Positions 1,354-42,288 of a stretch of 64,000 bases of DNA are shown piece after piece. Under the pieces are notes generated by a model. It had not been told where the DNA came from. It did no database searches and worked only from the letters and a program-made list of their open reading frames with translations. Origin of the DNA: Candidatus Latescibacterota bacterium (GTDB lineage Bacteria > Latescibacterota > UBA2968 > UBA8231). Numbering within the stretch: the stretch's first letter is position 1; each line of letters starts with the position of its first letter. The stretch is from the NCBI GenBank assembly GCA_965248265.1, contig CBDFJF010000002.1, positions 2,688,001 through 2,752,000 on the forward strand, in the 5' to 3' direction. A program made the position numbers and the translations under genes.

Positions 1354-1574
1354 GACCGACCGGCCGGACACCGCTGCGTTCCCATCTCTCGCTGACAGCT
1401 GCCGCGGCGCCCGCAGGCGCTGATCCGGGCACCTATCCACTGTCCCATCGTTCACCGCACCACGATCAACGCACAAGCACGACCCTCAACGCCCTCGAAA
1501 AGCCCAAAAACCGCTTGACTGACTACCGATCTCTTTAGGCGAAAGAAGTCAAGGCTTCTGTCTATTCGGAGGAT

Positions 1575-1724
1575 TTCTTCAACTGGCAATAATCTCATTT
1601 CGGTCTTCAATGGAGACCTTCATACTGTTCCGGCCATGTTGAAGAAGCTGGGCCAGAGTGACGGGTTGTAACGCGGGTGATCTCCCAAGGGAGTCACGAA
1701 TCGGGAGCGGTCATCTCTGGCCAG
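1575..1724 (-). ncRNA. predicted bridge/seek RNA of IS110 type 1 (target loop 1648-1724, donor loop 1575-1646)
   Basis: Two stem-internal loop-hairpin units. Guides ATCGGGAG/TGTAA match the oriIS target; ATACTGTT/ATCTC match the element's circle junction. Confidence 0.8.
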
Positions 1725-1743
1725 TTCCTCGTTGTTCGTCCTC

Positions 1744-3018
1744 TCAAGCTGCCTGCCGCTCGTAGGATGCAGCACAAGTGAAATGACGTTCGGTGTTGAA
1801 TGCTTGTCCGGAGCGGTACCACCCGTGGAGCTTTCGCAGAAAGTGTCTCATGACGGCAGTCATGGCTTTCTGTCCGGGCATGGCAAGGCGCTTACGGCGG
1901 TAGTAGTCGCCGTACAGACCCCTTCGTCGCACCAGGGGAAAGATGATCTGGCCAAGAATCTTACGCAGGAGAGGCCTTCCCTTCTTGGAAATCCTGTATT
2001 GCCCTCGATACTGGCCGGACTGGCGCATCTGGATATTGAGTCCGGCGTAGCGCAGGAGCATGCGCCAGCTGGTGAAGTCGCTGAGCGGTCCGGTTTCACC
2101 GATGAGGCGAGCCAGATTCTTGGCGCTGATGACGCCGGCAGTCGGAGCAGGTAGGCTCGGATCCTTGTGACGTAAACGCCGTAAGAGTGATGTCAGCCGC
2201 TTTTCCAGAGTAGCCTTGCGTTGCTCGTAGAGCAGGAACTCCTCCCACAACTGGCTGAGCTCAAGCTCGAGGAGATCGACGTAGGCGGGCGTGAGCTGAT
2301 GACGGGCGGAGGACGTGGCATCGTCCCAGAGCCGCTCTAGTGAACGCTGCCAGATACGCGGCGCCCGCCGCCGCATGGCCCGCTCGAAGCGGGTACGGCC
2401 CGCACGGACGATGCGATAAGGATTGCATCGATACTTATCGATCAAGGCGCGACCCGAGTTGCCGTACAGGAACTCCTTGGAGAAAGAAAAGTCGCAAAAC
2501 AGCTCCATCAGCACACGGTGCAGTCGGCCGCGCACCGCCATAAGGGCTCGATCGGCCCGCTCGTAGAGGAAGCCACATTTGCGCAGCAGCTCATACTCCT
2601 CAGGGAGATCCCGGTGCCGCAGGACCTTATTGAGCCGCGCCAGCGTATTGATGATGTGCGGGTCCTTGAGATCTGTCTTGCCGTCGTCATTGCTCTCGAC
2701 GACACGAAATTTGGCAACCGCCTCGCCGTTGACGTACGCCGTCAGGTGACCCAGTCGTCGCGCTGTGCGCAACAGCTTGTCCTGGTAGCCGCCTGAAGGC
2801 TCGCAGATGACTCGCAGTGATTTGAAGCCGTGCTCTCTCGCCAAGCGCCGACAGGCACGCAGCTTCTTCTCGATCTGTCGGGTCGTATTGGGCCACTCGT
2901 CATCCATGGCCTGATCGCCTAACTCAAAGTAGACATTGAGCTTGCTCTTGCTGACATCGACACAGATATCGAGGACCTGATCGAGTTGGACGGCCGGAGT
3001 CAACTTGGTAGATTTCAT
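1744..3018 (-). CDS. IS110-family recombinase/transposase (424 aa)
   Basis: DEDD motifs (VDVSK, CEPSG, KTDLKD), C-terminal RQSG serine motif, ISKKG..LRK. Confidence 0.95.
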   Translation of the reverse strand: MKSTKLTPAVQLDQVLDICVDVSKSKLNVYFELGDQAMDDEWPNTTRQIEKKLRACRRLAREHGFKSLRVICEPSGGYQDKLLRTARRLGHLTAYVNGEAVAKFRVVESNDDGKTDLKDPHIINTLARLNKVLRHRDLPEEYELLRKCGFLYERADRALMAVRGRLHRVLMELFCDFSFSKEFLYGNSGRALIDKYRCNPYRIVRAGRTRFERAMRRRAPRIWQRSLERLWDDATSSARHQLTPAYVDLLELELSQLWEEFLLYEQRKATLEKRLTSLLRRLRHKDPSLPAPTAGVISAKNLARLIGETGPLSDFTSWRMLLRYAGLNIQMRQSGQYRGQYRISKKGRPLLRKILGQIIFPLVRRRGLYGDYYRRKRLAMPGQKAMTAVMRHFLRKLHGWYRSGQAFNTERHFTCAASYERQAA

Positions 3019-3314
3019 GACGGGCTTCTCCTTTCAGATGCAGACGTGGGCACACGTCTTTGAGGGTCTTCGGACACCTCCGAATATCCGAAAGAGAAGC
3101 CCTCTTTGTTCGCCTAAGAGTATGTAATGCCGTTTATCCTCACTATGCGCTGCCCTCTGATCGAAGGGTACACGGGATGCTCATGGTCTCTACGAGAGAT
3201 TCGGGTTCGAGGTACTTGATGATTCCGCGGCTTGGATGCAGCTGAAGTTCGAGAGGCCATGGTTCCGACCCGAGATGGGCACAGAGTGAATCGAGGGCAC
3301 ACAGGTGGGCAGGA

Positions 3315-15109: not shown

Positions 15110-15911
15110 TTAGAGTCGATCGATGTAGACATAGTATGCGCCGACGTCGTTTCCATGCGCATCGACGAACCACGTTTGCAGCCGCGTCTCCCCGGCATTG
15201 AGCTTCACCGTGAACGAGATTCCGAAGTCGTCCGCGTTAACGTCGGCTTCTTTCTCGATGTCGGCCACACGGAGACGCGCCTTCCTGATCGGCAGCGCCT
15301 TCCCGCCGCCGTATCCGTCCTTGATCTCGACGTAGGAGCGGAGGTCTCCCTCTATGCCCTCCACGATCGGGCGATCTTCCTCCTTCGGCCATCGCCTGAG
15401 CTCGACACGATATCGGCTGGAGACAGCGACGTCGATTTCCCAGTAGCCGTTGCACGCCATTCCCGCCCGAACCTGCGACTGGTTCCAGGCACAGACCGCA
15501 TCCGGATTGCGCCAGTCGTGAGCGTTCAGCTGGACCGCAGGCACTTCGGTCGATCCAACGGGAATCGGGATCGTACCGCTGAACTGGCGGGACACCTTTG
15601 CCCACCACGCCTCGTAATCCTTCCGCAGGCGGGTGACGACATCCGGATAGTCCGCCGCGACATCCGTGGTCTGTCCAGGGTCCGTCCGGACGTCGAAGAG
15701 TTCTTTCCCGTTGATCAGGCGCCAGCGCTGCGTCATCGTCGCGCTCTTGCGCCACTTGATCGGGTCTGTGATCCGCTGCGAGTCGGTCACGAGCGTGCGA
15801 TCGGGCCAATCGACATCCTCTCCCCGAATTAGCGGGGCCACGCTCGTGCCGTCGAAGTCGTCGTCGTCGTGTTCGATCCCGCACAGATCCATCAGCGTCG
15901 GCATCATATCG
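15110..15911 (-). pseudogene. arylsulfatase, C-terminal fragment
   Basis: DMMPTL..DG.S, ELFD..DPGQ..DVA..P; begins right at the oriIS G terminus. Confidence 0.85.
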
Positions 15912-15969
15912 ACGCTTAGACAAGCGGTAACATGTCAACACCGATCGTGGGCAAATATCGAGTCTCCGT

Positions 15970-17160
15970 TCAGTTGAGGATAGGTGTGTAGGGACGATTG
16001 TTCTTGAGGACGCTGAAGACGACGTGGAGCATCTTGTTGGCGACATGAGTGAGCGCGACGAGATGGTGCTTGCCGCGATCAATGTGTCGCTGATAGACCT
16101 GGGTGAAGAGGGGGTCATGGCTCTTGAAGACGGCGATCTCTGAGGCTTGCATGACGGCGGTGCGCAGGTAGCGACTGCCGCGCTTGGACATTCTGCCGCG
16201 ACCGACCAGATCGCCGCTGTCGAACTGCTTGACGTCGAGGCCAGCGGTGGCGACGAATTTGCGAGCACCATGCTGATCCTCGGGATGAAACACGGGCAGG
16301 ATCTCGGCCAGGATGGTGGGTGCCCACACGGGCCCCAGACCTGGGACGGAGCGCAGAAGGCACTGCTGCTCGGTCACGAGATCTTGCAGTTGTTCGTCGA
16401 GTTGAGCGATCTGTTCGATGAGGAGGTTGACGCGCTCCATGACGAAGCGAATCTCCAGGGACAAGTGCTGACTGCGATGAGTGAGGGCGAAGGAGTTTTT
16501 AGCGGAGGCCTTCAAGGCTTGTGCCTGGTCTCGTCCGAAGGCTCCCCGACTGGCGTCCTTCAACAGACGCGTCAGGCGGCGGATGTCGACGCGGGCCAGG
16601 TCCTCAGCGGTGGGAAACTGTGCCAGCACGGCTCGACTGGAGGCACCGAAGAGATCGGAGAAGTGCTGCCCGTATTCGGGAAAAGCCAAGTCGAGGAGGC
16701 TGACGAGATGACCCTTTTGGGACTTGACGGTCTGTGCGCACTGATAGCGCAATCGCGTCAGATCGCGCAAGGACTGGACCTGTCGATCCGGGATAGCGCA
16801 GACCTTCAGATCGGTCTCCCGCAGCAGATGGGCGATCAGCAGGGCATCGGCGCTGTCGGTCTTGGTGCCACGGATGGTGATGTTGCGCCGCGCTGCCACG
16901 ACCAGGGGATTGATGAGGTCAACGACATACCCTGCCTGGACCAGGGCTTCGTAGAGGACCATCCAGTAGTGGCCGGTGGCCTCCATGCCGACGCGGATGT
17001 CGGCGGCGGGTTGTCCGGTCTCGGCCAGGCGTTGACACAACTGCTCGATGCCCTGGCGAGTCTGCTCCACGGCGAGATTACGGAAAACAGCCTGAGATTC
17101 CTCATCCAACAGCGTGGCGCGATGACTGCGTTTGGCCACATCAATTCCAAGTGTCCACAT
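15970..17160 (-). CDS. IS110-family recombinase/transposase (396 aa)
   Basis: GIDVAK, MEATGHYW, KTDSAD, FDSG, MSKRGSRYLR. Confidence 0.96.
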   Translation of the reverse strand: MWTLGIDVAKRSHRATLLDEESQAVFRNLAVEQTRQGIEQLCQRLAETGQPAADIRVGMEATGHYWMVLYEALVQAGYVVDLINPLVVAARRNITIRGTKTDSADALLIAHLLRETDLKVCAIPDRQVQSLRDLTRLRYQCAQTVKSQKGHLVSLLDLAFPEYGQHFSDLFGASSRAVLAQFPTAEDLARVDIRRLTRLLKDASRGAFGRDQAQALKASAKNSFALTHRSQHLSLEIRFVMERVNLLIEQIAQLDEQLQDLVTEQQCLLRSVPGLGPVWAPTILAEILPVFHPEDQHGARKFVATAGLDVKQFDSGDLVGRGRMSKRGSRYLRTAVMQASEIAVFKSHDPLFTQVYQRHIDRGKHHLVALTHVANKMLHVVFSVLKNNRPYTPILN

Positions 17161-17218
17161 TCGGCGAGCTCCTTGATCAAGTGACCGAAGCTGCCCACGA
17201 TCGGGGTGACGCCAGCTG

Positions 17219-17340
17219 GCACATCCTCGTAGCCAGATCAGGGAACGAAGGTCCCGTCAAGCGGTAAGTGCATGTGCTGGCGCAATGGCGGTCTAAGCCA
17301 GAGGACTGAGCCTCGAGTGGAGGATAGCCAACCCAGCAGC
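17219..17340 (-). ncRNA. predicted bridge RNA of IS110 type 2 (core loops; 5' end not defined)
   Basis: Target guides AGTGGAGGATA (17316-26) and CTAAGC (17293-98); donor guides CAAGCGGTAA (17258-67) and CTCGTA (17226-31); each pair flanks a small hairpin. Confidence 0.8.
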
Positions 17341-17453
17341 TTCGCTGATCCAGGATCGCATTGCTGGCATCAGGAAGCAAGCACTGAGAGTACGCAGCTG
17401 GTCGCCGTCTCGCGGGGCAGACACACCGAAGTGGCCTGCACCTATTATACGAG

Positions 17454-17749
17454 TGGTTATAAAGTAGGTTATCGTTAGTCGATCAGGTGTTATTTTCGCT
17501 TTTTTTCGCGTTGATGGCGGTCTATGTGGGTTGACGGTCGTCGACTGAGCGCTTGAGGCTGCGAATAGGCCCGAAGGGGAGTGGCTGTGAACGAAGATGG
17601 GATTGCCAGCGAGGGATCAGGACACATCGGTGCCTTTGCTGTGACGACGAATCGATCTCAGGCGGCGAAATCTAGCTCGGACTGGGGATTGGGGCGTGCC
17701 GGGGCGATCGGCGGGGCCCGTGATGGCAGGCCGACCCCCTTCAGGTAGA
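17454..17749 (-). mobile_element. IS91-like 3' fragment (copy G); its last bases lie beyond the IS110 at 15912-15919
   Basis: YLKGVGLPSRAPPIAPARPNPQSELDFAA* plus 3' UTR identical to copy H. Confidence 0.9.
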
Positions 17750-19345: not shown

Positions 19346-19575
19346 CGCTTAGTGGTTATAAAGTAGGTTATCGTTAGTCGATCAGGTGTTATTTTCGCTT
19401 TTTTTCGCGTTGATGGCGGTCTATGTGGGTTGACGGTCGTCGACTGAGCGCTTGAGGCTGCGAATAGGCCCGAAGGGGAGTGGCTGTGAACGAAGATGGG
19501 ATTGCCAGCGAGGGATCAGGACACATCGGTGCCTTTGCTGTGACGACGAATCGATCTCAGGCGGCGAAATCTAGC
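19346..19575 (-). mobile_element. oriIS-like mini-element (copy H, 230 bp)
   Basis: Matches 17454-17675; intact terminus TTTATAACCACTAAGCG. Confidence 0.88.
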
Positions 19576-21415: not shown

Positions 21416-21641
21416 GGCCAAAGTACCCATCCCGTCCATCACAAAAGCTCAGATTTTCATCGGCACCACCCATGGCATTGCGGATCAAGCCGGTCCCAAG
21501 GCCGAATCGACGGTCCCATCGCACCCCACCCGACCCACGGCCGGCACCCAAGCGCCCTGGCGACAGCAAGCACCACCATCGAATCCAAAAAAAAACCCAC
21601 TTGACCGACTCCCGATAACACCGTTTATCCTCCCTATGCAT
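21416..21641 (+). mobile_element. oriIS-like mini-element (copy I)
   Basis: Inverted copy of 40428-40637; ends CCGTTTATCCTCCCTATGCAT. Confidence 0.85.
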
Positions 21642-22095
21642 CCAGCTTGAGTTCGGCCAGTTCCCGGCCCATCGGTTGCCACCATGCCTTCGAATTGAAA
21701 AAGTTGTCCTGACAGCCATTGTAGTGGCGTGTCAGCATCAGAATGAACATCATGGCGCATTCTGCCAGCGAGATGCCGCTGGTAACACCCGGACAATTAC
21801 ATGTGGGAATACCCTTGGCCTTCAGAGCCGCCAACGGAGCATCCTCGAAACCCGTCTTGGCAACCTGCCAGAGTTTCAGATCCACGGCGGCCTCGACCAT
21901 CTGCTCAGTGTTCTCTATCAAGCCGTCATCGATCACCGCGTCCATCCCTTTGATTTGGGCCACACCGGGCTGTGACGGATCAAAGAACCGGAGATCATGA
22001 CGATGATGTAACGCCTTCTCAAGGTACGGGCCCAAAGGGTAATACTGGTCTTCGTTGTTCCGGTCGGCCAAATAGAGAACGTTCATAGATGCCAC
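21642..22095 (-). pseudogene. D-2-hydroxyacid dehydrogenase, 5' half (duplicate of 41305-41758)
   Basis: Identical protein up to ELAELKL, then cut by copy I. Confidence 0.92.
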
Positions 22096-22762
22096 TCAGT
22101 GCTTATTTGGGGGTTTTTTGTTGCGACTGCCGGTCGGGTTGCCAACCACACGACCCGATTTTCGGCCAATGGCGGCGATGGTGAGAATGATCGGCGGCGA
22201 GACGAAGGTCAATACCGACCCACTACTTCGATAAGCAATCCGCATTATTGTTCTGGAATCGAGAACTATCGACCCAAGCCGAGGAAATTCGGAGCGAACG
22301 AAGAAACCCGACTCGACAGAGGAGAGAGAGCATGACCGATCGCAAGCTGCGCATACTGACAGTGTCTGCCCACCCCCACGATTTCACCTGGTTTTCCGGG
22401 ACGCTCGGAAAACACGTCGAACGGGGGGACGAAGCCACGGTATGCGTGGTGACCCACGGAGGCAGCACCCATCGAGAGGAATGGATGGAGGAGTTGCGCA
22501 AACCGGTGTCGGAGCGAGATGCGTCAGTCGTCAATGCTTCGGCCGAAAGATACATCCAGCAGAAAGAGGATGAACTGCGCAACGCGGCCGCCATCTTCGA
22601 CGTCACTGACATCCGCATGCTGAACTTCCCGGACAAGCCGTTTCTCATCTCAGAGCATCCAGAGGTTATCGATCGCATAGCGGAACTCATCCTCGAGGTG
22701 AGACCGCACGTCATGCTCACGGAAAGCCCGTTCACCGACTGCGGCCGGCCTATGGTGCACCG
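21642..22762. repeat. 1121-bp segment duplicated in inverted orientation at 40638-41758
   Basis: Identical ORF translations in both places; boundaries read from the sequence. Confidence 0.92.
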
Positions 22763-23201
22763 CTCGGACCATACTGAAGTGGGCATTGCCGCTGCCGAGG
22801 CAAAATTGCGCGCCGAACTGCCCCGCCCGGGTTCGACGGCGCAGCCTCATCAGGTGGCCATGACCTTCTGGCCTGGCCTGGTCTTTGACCTGAGCCAGCT
22901 GGACCTGGTGGTGGAGTTGTCTGATGAATGGTTTGAGAAGCGGGTCCAGGCGGAGGCCTGTTTTGAGACCCAGGGACATGACGAACGATGGGCCCGCCAT
23001 CGGATGCTTCTGGAACTGGGCGTCATGGGCAACCATGCGCGCACAGCCTACGGCGAGGGATTCGTGCGCGAGAAACTGGAATTGAACAGTCATCTCCCGG
23101 TGCCCGAGGTCATGATCCGACAGGCGGAAATAGGAGATACCCAGAACGCGCGACGGATGCTTCGGCTCGATCTCCCTGACCAAGGAGCGCCTCCATGTTG
23201 A
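22332..23201 (+). CDS. PIG-L/LmbE-family deacetylase
   Basis: SAHPHD, THG, HRSDH; GGAG RBS. Confidence 0.88.
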   Translation: MTDRKLRILTVSAHPHDFTWFSGTLGKHVERGDEATVCVVTHGGSTHREEWMEELRKPVSERDASVVNASAERYIQQKEDELRNAAAIFDVTDIRMLNFPDKPFLISEHPEVIDRIAELILEVRPHVMLTESPFTDCGRPMVHRSDHTEVGIAAAEAKLRAELPRPGSTAQPHQVAMTFWPGLVFDLSQLDLVVELSDEWFEKRVQAEACFETQGHDERWARHRMLLELGVMGNHARTAYGEGFVREKLELNSHLPVPEVMIRQAEIGDTQNARRMLRLDLPDQGAPPC

Positions 23202-41304: not shown

Positions 41305-42288
41305 GTGGCATCTATGAACGTTCTCTATTTGGCCGACCGGAACAACGAAGACCAGTATTACCCTTTGGGCCCGTACCTTGAGAAGGCGTTACATCATCGT
41401 CATGATCTCCGGTTCTTTGATCCGTCACAGCCCGGTGTGGCCCAAATCAAAGGGATGGACGCGGTGATCGATGACGGCTTGATAGAGAACACTGAGCAGA
41501 TGGTCGAGGCCGCCGTGGATCTGAAACTCTGGCAGGTTGCCAAGACGGGTTTCGAGGATGCTCCGTTGGCGGCTCTGAAGGCCAAGGGTATTCCCACATG
41601 TAATTGTCCGGGTGTTACCAGCGGCATCTCGCTGGCAGAATGCGCCATGATGTTCATTCTGATGCTGACACGCCACTACAATGGCTGTCAGGACAACTTT
41701 TTCAATTCGAAGGCATGGTGGCAACCGATGGGCCGGGAACTGGCCGAACTCAAGCTGGGCATCGTCGGCTTCGGGGCCAGTGGCCAGGCATTGGCCCGCC
41801 GTGCCCGCTCTTTCGACATGGGAATTCGCGCCATCAATCGCAGCCCAATCAAACGAGAAATGCTCGAAAAAATACCTCTGGAACTCGCCGGCACTCCTGA
41901 CGATTTGGACCCGGTGATCAGCGAGTGTGATATCGTCTCGCTGCACCTTCCTCTCAACGACACGACTCGACAGATCATGAGTGCGAGACGGATCGGGCTG
42001 ATGAAGCAGGATGCGTATTTGATCAACGTGGCCCGCGGCGGGCTGGTTGATCAGGACGCATTGTTCGAGGCCTTGACGGATGGAAAGATTGCGGGAGCCG
42101 GCCTGGATGTATTTGCCGAGGAACCGCCTGATCCGAACCATCCGGCCTTTCGGTTGCCCAATCTGCTGATCACACCCCACATTGCGGGGAGCACGAACGG
42201 CACCTACCGCAAACGCGGCCTCTGTATGGCTGATAATCTCGACCGGATTGCCGACGGCCTGGAACCGCTCTACCGGGTCGACACCTGA
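41305..42288 (+). CDS. D-isomer-specific 2-hydroxyacid dehydrogenase
   Basis: GFGASG, SLHLP, INVARGG, GLDVF.EEP, TPHIAG. Confidence 0.93.
   Translation: MASMNVLYLADRNNEDQYYPLGPYLEKALHHRHDLRFFDPSQPGVAQIKGMDAVIDDGLIENTEQMVEAAVDLKLWQVAKTGFEDAPLAALKAKGIPTCNCPGVTSGISLAECAMMFILMLTRHYNGCQDNFFNSKAWWQPMGRELAELKLGIVGFGASGQALARRARSFDMGIRAINRSPIKREMLEKIPLELAGTPDDLDPVISECDIVSLHLPLNDTTRQIMSARRIGLMKQDAYLINVARGGLVDQDALFEALTDGKIAGAGLDVFAEEPPDPNHPAFRLPNLLITPHIAGSTNGTYRKRGLCMADNLDRIADGLEPLYRVDT

Follow-up and report, generated by a model that had tools for sequence, protein, structure and literature searches.

Two copies of an IS110-family insertion sequence with a predicted bridge RNA occupy the same position in origin-type ends of ISCR/IS91-like elements of a Candidatus Latescibacterota bacterium

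A 64,000-nucleotide stretch of the genome of a Candidatus Latescibacterota bacterium (contig CBDFJF010000002.1, positions 2,688,001 to 2,752,000; G000:C2:2688001-2752000 in the numbering of the present study; "the window" hereafter) contains two copies of an insertion sequence (IS) of the IS110 family, each inserted at the equivalent CT dinucleotide of the putative origin ("ori") end of an ISCR/IS91-like rolling-circle element. The best explanation, to which a probability of roughly 0.85 can be assigned, is that this is an ordinary, probably recently active IS110-type IS moving by bridge-RNA-guided recombination. In the proposed course of events, the DEDD/Ser recombinase of 396 amino acids (aa) would excise the element as a circle, and joining of its ends, ...TTGACA...TTACCGCTTGT-CT-CGTATAAT..., would create a consensus sigma-70 promoter for the non-coding leader upstream of the gene; two loops would arise when the transcribed leader folds, a donor-binding one that would pair with the junction and a target-binding one that would pair with the site around CT. 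In this lineage, the target CT is situated 5-6 bp within the end that follows the Y2 transposase gene of ISCR/IS91-like elements, in the position of oriIS. The coordinates of the features are collected in Table 1; positions refer to the window unless preceded by the contig label C2.

The flanks of the two copies clearly indicate two separate events. On the sense (minus) strand, copy 1 reads TTATAACCA-CT-(IS)-CT-AAGCG (more widely, ...CTACTTTATAACCA-CT-(element)-CT-AAGCGT...), and copy 2 reads TTATCCTCA-CT-(IS)-CT-ATGCG (...GCCGTTTATCCTCA-CT-(element)-CT-ATGCGC...); CT stands on both sides of each copy, while empty sites contain a single CT. The ori flanks belong to different sub-families, interrupted at the same position within the end, and the identity of the two loci ends exactly at CT on both sides, so the copies represent two independent insertions and not a duplication. 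An earlier note on this DNA, made from its letters, had placed two 1534-bp IS110 copies at the equivalent CT of two ori sub-families, and the comparison of flanks bears this out in every detail. The empty alleles, which it expected near 19351 and 3143, are present as well: the 225 nucleotides (nt) at 17452-17676, forming the left flank of copy 1, are repeated exactly at 19351-19575, where the sequence continues without interruption (...TTATAACCACTAAGCGTGG), and the last 28 bp of an ori end corresponding to the copy 2 target are found near the beginning of the window. The last 5-6 bp (AAGCG-T) of the ori end holding copy 1 are located beyond the IS, at 15912-15917.

The nature of the target follows from the Y2 (HUH) transposase gene at the beginning of the window. 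Its product matches PF04986 (96.9 bits, cut-off 20.9); the best NCBIfam match is the ISCR clade Ia model (E 5.5e-102), with a score below the cut-off (341.9 vs 925), and the score with the IS91 model is also below the cut-off (97.8 vs 125). The ori repeat consists of the 3' end of the Y2 gene and about 125-360 nt downstream, closing in ...GACTA.CGATAA....TTAT.....CT-A..CG. Five near-full-length Y2 genes have an ori end downstream, at a distance of 199-361 nt in four (same strand); the distance for the window's own Y2 gene is 1729 nt, because another DEDD-family element lies in between. In IS91 and ISCR1, the end that follows the transposase gene is oriIS (PMC13181058, PMC6218425), so the term "ori end" can fairly be used here to denote position, the origin function itself being putative. 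A regular-expression search of the genome gave 89 uncurated matches, most of them recognisable ends of several sub-families, the number including both strands of palindromic ends and some chance matches. Among these matches a conserved flanking tetranucleotide is not evident, and the bases after the shared end vary except for one C or T. Ori copies of one sub-family are alike to 5-6 bp past the CT and then diverge, so the insertion of the IS severs the last few bases of the end from the rest, which would likely disable it.

The two copies are in direct orientation, with an offset of 20339, and differ only at positions 17435, 17439 and 17443. All three differences fall within 9 nt, in the first hairpin directly after the -10 box, and the states at these positions are shared in a mosaic manner with a third copy and an internally deleted copy described below; the cluster could reflect inter-copy recombination or a mutable spot near the transcription start. 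The recombinase open reading frame (ORF) of copy 2 (36309-37499, minus strand) encodes a protein identical to that of copy 1. The protein contains PF01548 at residues 4-161 (E 3.6e-39, 134.5 bits, cut-off 29) and PF02371 at residues 268-357 (E 2.6e-16, 60.2 bits, cut-off 21.3), and scores 235.3 bits, against a cut-off of 140, with the NCBIfam model NF033542 "IS110 family RNA-guided transposase". A phmmer alignment with the IS621 recombinase (8wt6_A) is remote (E 9.1e-18), and in it D7, E60, D102, D105 and S315-G316 align with D11, E60, D102, D105 and S241-G242 of IS621, residues given as essential in PMC11208158. The non-coding parts of the element comprise 293 nt 5' of the start codon and 50 nt 3' of the stop codon, and the repeat search of the window reported no terminal inverted repeats at the element ends. 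Thus, the element is an IS110-family member of the IS110 group with a DEDD/Ser recombinase and, apart from left-arm complementarity in register, with the defining features of the family that were tested, its junction promoter and RNA expression being predicted. A search of a plasmid collection in distant mode gave no match.

The ends of the element are CT-CGTATAAT... and ...TTGACATGTTACCGCTTGT-CT. When they are joined through one CT, the junction of the right end and the left end (RE-CT-LE) would contain TTGACA-N17-TATAAT, that is, the -35 and -10 boxes with a 17-bp spacer; no complete sigma-70-like promoter was found in the integrated copy, and the positions of the boxes at the two ends are conserved in relatives. 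This would amount to a circle-junction promoter of the kind known for the family, from which the leader would be expressed. The two donor guides match this junction, in agreement with the earlier note: the left one repeats 10 nt of the right end, and the right one, read as its reverse complement, gives the CT-CGTA of the left end. The donor loop and the element ends are nearly invariant among copy 1, the third copy, the deleted copy and relatives, and variable positions concentrate in both sides of the target loop.

The bridge-RNA-like layout of the leader, also proposed earlier for the non-coding region upstream of the gene, is supported by a covarying fold. An alignment of 14 sequences, the copy 1 leader and 13 related leaders, places the first internal loop at 17326-17293 and the second at 17267-17226, and the four guide strings that the earlier note had named lie in these loops on the minus strand (Table 1). 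RNAalifold predicted 33 pairs, 11 of them with compensatory changes. In two alternative hand-drawn structures, 93.1% or 94.8% of cells are paired, compared with 43-60% when the partners are slid, and changes on both sides occur in 10 of 21 or 11 of 22 pairs; the four core helices are 92-100% paired, with both-side changes in 8 of 15 pairs. The covariation score was reached in 0 of 500 shuffles, a count that is not a probability, because the sequences are related. A mid strand, GCCRGC (17282-17275), can pair either with the 5' GCYGG (17340-17332) or with the 3' GCYGGC (17219-17210); both helices are possible in 14 of 14 relatives, both have compensatory changes, and the leader may adopt two mutually exclusive folds. 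The leader has the layout of a bridge RNA as in IS621; its expression and its binding by the recombinase are predictions from sequence.

The assignment of the target loop was assessed with a permutation of guides and flanks among 12 independent related elements. The right guide matches the four bases after CT at 43 of 48 positions (re-paired mean 18.8, standard deviation 3.8), and the best 7-mer of the left guide matches the seven bases before CT at 60 of 84 (re-paired mean 42.9, standard deviation 3.5); the observed sum was reached in 0/20000 re-pairings for the left arm and in 0/20000 for the right arm. Left out were copy 2, which has the guide of copy 1, L103 (same locus as L102), L106 (without the left flank in its contig), L024 (without the right flank), L104 and L108 (anchors not found) and L002 and L026 (without the left end). 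Sums above all re-pairings indicate that the loops are correctly identified and track their targets in the family. The left guide matches its flank at 5-7 of 7 positions in 9 of the 12 elements, which shows that the left arm is normally used in the lineage. The internally deleted copy has a right guide fitting its own ori site at 4/4 positions (5/5 with the next base) and a left guide fitting at 5/7, and in L004, a degenerate relative in the kin genome G026, the left guide fits its own site at 7/7.

Other copies in the genome, found with BLAST, occupy the same kind of place. They include a third full-length copy (copy 3) with an open frame at C2:2786745-2788280 (84.5% nucleotide and 89% amino acid identity), the internally deleted copy at C2:2652804-2653866 and several right-end-only fragments. 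All the copies retaining the left end in this genome (4/4) lie in ori ends at the same position, and four right-end fragments are followed by CT-A(A/T)NC(G/T), as in ori ends; the condition under which the earlier note would have given up its proposal, that most other copies lie outside ori motifs, does not apply to this genome. L004 is located in an ori-like end, with the remnant of a Y2 gene about 330 nt upstream of it, and a 77%-identical element from a metagenome (L102/L103, one locus) is likewise located in an ori-like end, with a Y2 remnant about 225 nt upstream; together with the placement in the own genome, this makes ori targeting a trait of the sub-lineage. More distant relatives (48-67% amino acid identity) occupy sequences of other kinds, which are palindromic in two cases. 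In one study, possibly of the source sample, contigs from four DNA runs follow copy 1 and then diverge from it exactly at the right and left target guides (17283 and 17330), which suggests further target-loop variants in the community, with loops fitting other ori sub-families.

The fit of the guides to the two occupied sites in the window is less simple than the family-wide picture. The right guide fits the copy 1 site at 4/4 and the copy 2 site at 3/4 positions. The left guide, placed in the register of the relatives (same loop length, CU over the core), specifies TCCTCCA-CT. At the copy 1 site the right arm and the core match fully, and in the left arm only the CCA adjacent to the CT core matches the guide; at the copy 2 site, a shift of 1 nt gives 6/7 (10/10 including the flanking TAT and CT), so that TATCCTC-ACT would match UAUCCUC(C)ACU at 10/10 positions with one bulged C, with one mismatch in the right arm. 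Earlier, the target guides had been described as a composite of the two targets; the combination of the copy 2 left arm with the copy 1 right arm is in fact a real third ori sub-family, TTATCCTCA-CT-AAGC, which the target loop fits best and which has 12 genomic sites. In the window, both insertions occupy near-cognate variants of the target for which the loop is best suited. Simple complementarity does not describe the relation of the left guide to the sites, given the in-register values below and the extra C needed at copy 2.

Several results weigh against the preferred explanation. In register, the left guide matches only 3/7 positions at both the copy 1 and the copy 2 sites; this is the commonest value among non-cognate pairs, and none of the 12 elements scores lower. 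The 12 best-fitting sites of the third sub-family are all empty, while the poorer-fitting classes are occupied, one of four sites in the copy 1 class and one of seven in the copy 2 class. The in-register 13-mer has no exact match in the genome; one mismatch yields 1 site, two yield 41 and three yield 545, of which 60 were inspected. An ori context was found at none of the 42 that have at most two mismatches, and in-register pairing thus does not explain the choice of site. The guides of copy 3 fit its own ori end poorly (best window of the left guide 4/7, right guide 3/4). Folded as a single sequence, the leader is not unusually stable (z = -1.6), and none of the Rfam families scored at gathering level anywhere in the window, a relaxed search of 15800-17600 (E up to 10) giving only two chance-level matches. 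Contigs of the four runs, which cannot show absence, contain neither a circle junction nor an empty-site joint at copy 1: no contig bridges the left junction (17453), and at the right junction (15919/15920) three contigs extend only 27 nt into the element, where 31 letters were required. An ori variant fitting the left guide in register was also sought in 61 genomes with a 16-nt pattern allowing one mismatch; the search gave 14 matches, against 9 with the reversed control, and the 7 loci inspected of the 10 listed were all coding-like and had no ori motif, so the candidate was dropped for those (60 kin) genomes.

These results leave room for other accounts of how the sites were chosen. Perhaps the choice depends mainly not on pairing of the left guide, which would be largely dispensable, and the ori end is recognised by the CT core, the right arm and a second layer in the end itself, such as DNA structure, single-stranded ori DNA arising from rolling-circle activity or a protein contact. 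This is possible, though on the unlikely side: it would explain why all the insertions are in ori ends with the left arm at chance level in register, why many better in-register sites elsewhere are unused and why the right arm fits at 4/4, 3/4, 3/4 and 4/4 positions in the four resident copies, and preprints report that one arm and the core are enough for IS621 recombination in vitro (10.64898/2026.08.31.748434) and that a target stem-loop is an extra determinant for ISPpu10 (10.64898/2026.03.19.712850). The tracking of the left flank by the left guide in relatives, up to 7/7 for L004 at an ori-like end, speaks against it, and no conserved hairpin was found in the ori ends by eye (no formal test was made). 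It is improbable that another variant, now lost or residing in a co-resident strain, supplied in trans a bridge RNA whose target loop matched both sites. Cross-mobilisation between variants would be possible, since the donor loop and ends are nearly the same across variants and the target loops differ; contigs departing from copy 1 exactly at the two target guides reveal other loop variants in the sample, and the ISPpu10 recombinase is termed trans-acting in the preprint 10.64898/2026.03.19.712850. Nevertheless, this account needs an unseen partner, and neither any copy in the assembly nor the two loop variants of the contigs match AACCA-CT or CCTCA-CT in register. The poor guide fit of copy 3 somewhat favours either a determinant in ori DNA or guidance in trans.

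Spread without RNA guidance, whether by segmental duplication, by gene conversion among the ori repeats or by hitch-hiking in a transposing ISCR-like element, is hardly credible, even though ori ends recur and rearranged repeats abound in the region. Copy identity stops exactly at the CT on both sides, within ori flanks of different sub-families; the ori sequence past the point of insertion amounts to only 5-6 bp, which is too little for homologous exchange, and precise empty sites exist. On the comparison of flanks, an origin of the copies by gene conversion or hitch-hiking was rejected. Guided recombination by an IS110-type element remains the preferred reading, with one guide RNA probably directing both insertions.

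If that guide acted, some slack is certain, because it is identical in the two copies and the two sites differ at 4 of 11 non-core positions. Natural mismatch tolerance, which the earlier note had seen in these copies, is therefore a reasonable inference as to the two sites, and its standing as the sole explanation is weakened by guidance in trans or a second layer in ori DNA, which could account for them as well. Three readings remain: tolerance of a bulge or of distal left-arm mismatches; recognition by the core, the right arm and an ori determinant; and the RNA of another variant acting in trans. Similar slack was observed in near-identical multi-copy distant relatives (Oceanivirga L055-L060, Aminivibrio L047/L048, and L063/L066), where the left flanks differ at 1-3 positions, including one 1-nt shift, and the bases next to CT are shared; slack in the distal part of the left arm may be widespread in this branch. 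Most natural cases reported in PMC11208160 have 0-2 guide mismatches, and copies 1 and 2, with their loose guide fit, stand near the limit of the known range but still within it.

A bolder combination of these ideas, which we regard as doubtful, is that ori ends are found by the CT core, the right arm and a feature of ori DNA, with toleration of a left guide displaced by one base, which bulges out of the RNA, and that two distant DEDD lineages, the IS110-type element described here and an IS1111-like one inserted 23 nt upstream of the terminus, are hyperparasites splitting, and probably disabling, rolling-circle origin ends. If this were true, copies 1 and 2 would record natural half-match or bulge-tolerant bridge recombination.

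Table 1. Positions of the element copies, guide and promoter motifs, and target sites in the window
Feature	Position	Strand	Remarks
IS110-family element, copy 1	15920-17453	minus	1534 bp, counting one of the two flanking CT
IS110-family element, copy 2	36259-37792	minus	1534 bp; 3 differences from copy 1
Recombinase gene, 396 aa	15970-17160	minus	DEDD_Tnp_IS110 and Transposase_20 domains
Leader encoding predicted bridge RNA	17203-17449	minus	From -10 box to conserved ACCCC; RNA ends predicted
Left target guide UAUCCUCCACU	17316-17326	minus	DNA TATCCTCCACT; 5' side of target loop
Hairpin closing target loop	17301-17314	minus	GAGG/CCUC, compensatory changes in relatives
Right target guide GCUUAG (DNA GCTTAG)	17293-17298	minus	3' side of target loop; reverse complement of CT-AAGC
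Left donor guide UUACCGCUUG	17258-17267	minus	DNA TTACCGCTTG; identical to last bases of right end, 15921-15930 (10 nt)
Hairpin closing donor loop	17241-17255	minus	GGGA/UCCC, compensatory changes in relatives
Right donor guide UACGAG (DNA TACGAG)	17226-17231	minus	Reverse complement of CT-CGTA at left end
TATAAT -10 box	17444-17449	minus	Left end, 2 nt from tip; no matching -35 when integrated
TTGACA -35 box	15933-15938	minus	Right end, 13 nt from tip
Ori-type end holding copy 1 (solo ISCR/IS91-like fragment)	17454-17676	minus	
Ori-type end holding copy 2	37793-38076	minus	99% inverted match to 1266-1530, downstream of Y2 gene
Empty paralogue of copy 1 target	19346-19575	minus	Same ori fragment; ends ...TTATAACCACTAAGCG at 19361-19346
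Empty paralogue of copy 2 target	3122-3149	plus	Last 28 bp of ori end; 3134-3149 reads ...TTATCCTCACTATGCG
Y2 (HUH) transposase gene, ISCR/IS91-like	2-1423	plus	Its downstream end is the "ori" repeat

The IS1111-like element is another DEDD-family IS of the window (1531-3123, minus strand), with a transposase gene at 1744-3018 encoding a protein of 424 aa whose score does not reach the NCBIfam cut-off. Its designation as IS1111-like is based on sub-terminal inverted repeats and on a long non-coding part downstream of the gene. The insertion, with AT as its flanks, is in an ori end of the same kind. Decayed copies of this IS adjoin ori ends in the same relative position at C2:582272 and C2:2763256. 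The two IS110 types of the window had earlier been called unrelated, which is an overstatement, as the 424-aa transposase and the 396-aa recombinase are 24% identical and have both Pfam domains in common.

The surroundings of the ori ends show further peculiarities. Two solo ori fragments in direct orientation flank a single gene (ori 19575-19346, gene 19323-17791, identical ori 17676-17454), and about eight ori ends of one sub-family, 3-6 kb apart, are located at C2:1134-1156 kb (G000:C2:1134000-1157000); both arrangements are reminiscent of ISCR-type one-ended capture of neighbouring genes. A segment of 1122 bp stands after an ori end of 210 bp at one locus and before an identical, inverted ori end at another, so that the order is A-B in one and B-A in the other (21432-22763 and 40428-41758). 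Just beyond the ori terminus at copy 1 there is a truncated ORF (15110-15907, minus strand) with no Pfam match, which, by eye, looks like the C-terminal part of a sulfatase-like gene; the ori end at copy 1 thus abuts a truncated gene, as the N-terminal part of this ORF is missing.

The element adds an example of IS elements parasitising the origin ends of rolling-circle elements, with target loops seen diversifying along the sub-families of the ori end, and leaves the current picture of the IS110 mechanism unchanged. Bridge recombinases are in development as programmable DNA-insertion tools, for which off-target rules are an open practical question; two copies with one guide and 12 better sites left empty provide a small natural set of substrates for studying left-arm mismatches, a 1-nt bulge and sequence context.

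Among the known systems, IS621 of E. coli, as described in PMC11208160 and PMC11208158, has the same general plan: a DEDD RuvC-like domain and a Tnp domain with an S-G loop; a leader upstream of the gene; a CT core on both sides, with -35 in the right end and -10 in the left end, which here would likewise be joined only in the circle; a 5' target loop and a 3' donor loop, each an internal loop with a closing hairpin; left guides reading as the top strand and right guides as the reverse complement; and a target that is a repeated element of the host genome. The differences concern the protein, which is only remotely similar (E 9.1e-18) and longer (396 aa here vs 326 aa), the leader, which is longer here (293 nt), and the right target guide, which extends at least 4 nt beyond the core, where that of IS621 extends 2. 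Instead of a repetitive extragenic palindromic (REP) sequence, the end of a different transposable element serves as the target, the left guide is out of register, and the mid strand of the RNA has two covarying partners, a feature for which no description was met (no search aimed at it was made). ISPpu9 and ISPpu10 of Pseudomonas putida, according to PMC12288879, are likewise IS110 elements confined to one repeated intergenic sequence, and the preprint 10.64898/2026.03.19.712850 attributes the specificity of ISPpu10 to base pairing together with a structure encoded by the target; by analogy, pairing plus structure is a possible model for the restriction to ori ends here, although the target of the present element is not REP. 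Searches of open-access text brought up no description of IS91/ISCR origin ends as the target of an IS110-family element. A parallel is offered by the IS1111 group, in which, as given in PMC11187229, IS4321/IS5075 insert in the inverted repeats of the Tn21 family and the IS1111-attC elements (ISKpn4, ISPst6) insert in integron attC sites; these DEDD-family IS, too, have specialised in a feature conserved among other mobile elements, where they insert at one fixed position and in one orientation. Unlike them, the element described here is of the IS110 type, with its RNA encoded upstream of the gene, and its target is the oriIS-side end of ISCR/IS91-like rolling-circle elements, an end that thereby joins the conserved mobile-element features on which DEDD-family IS specialise.

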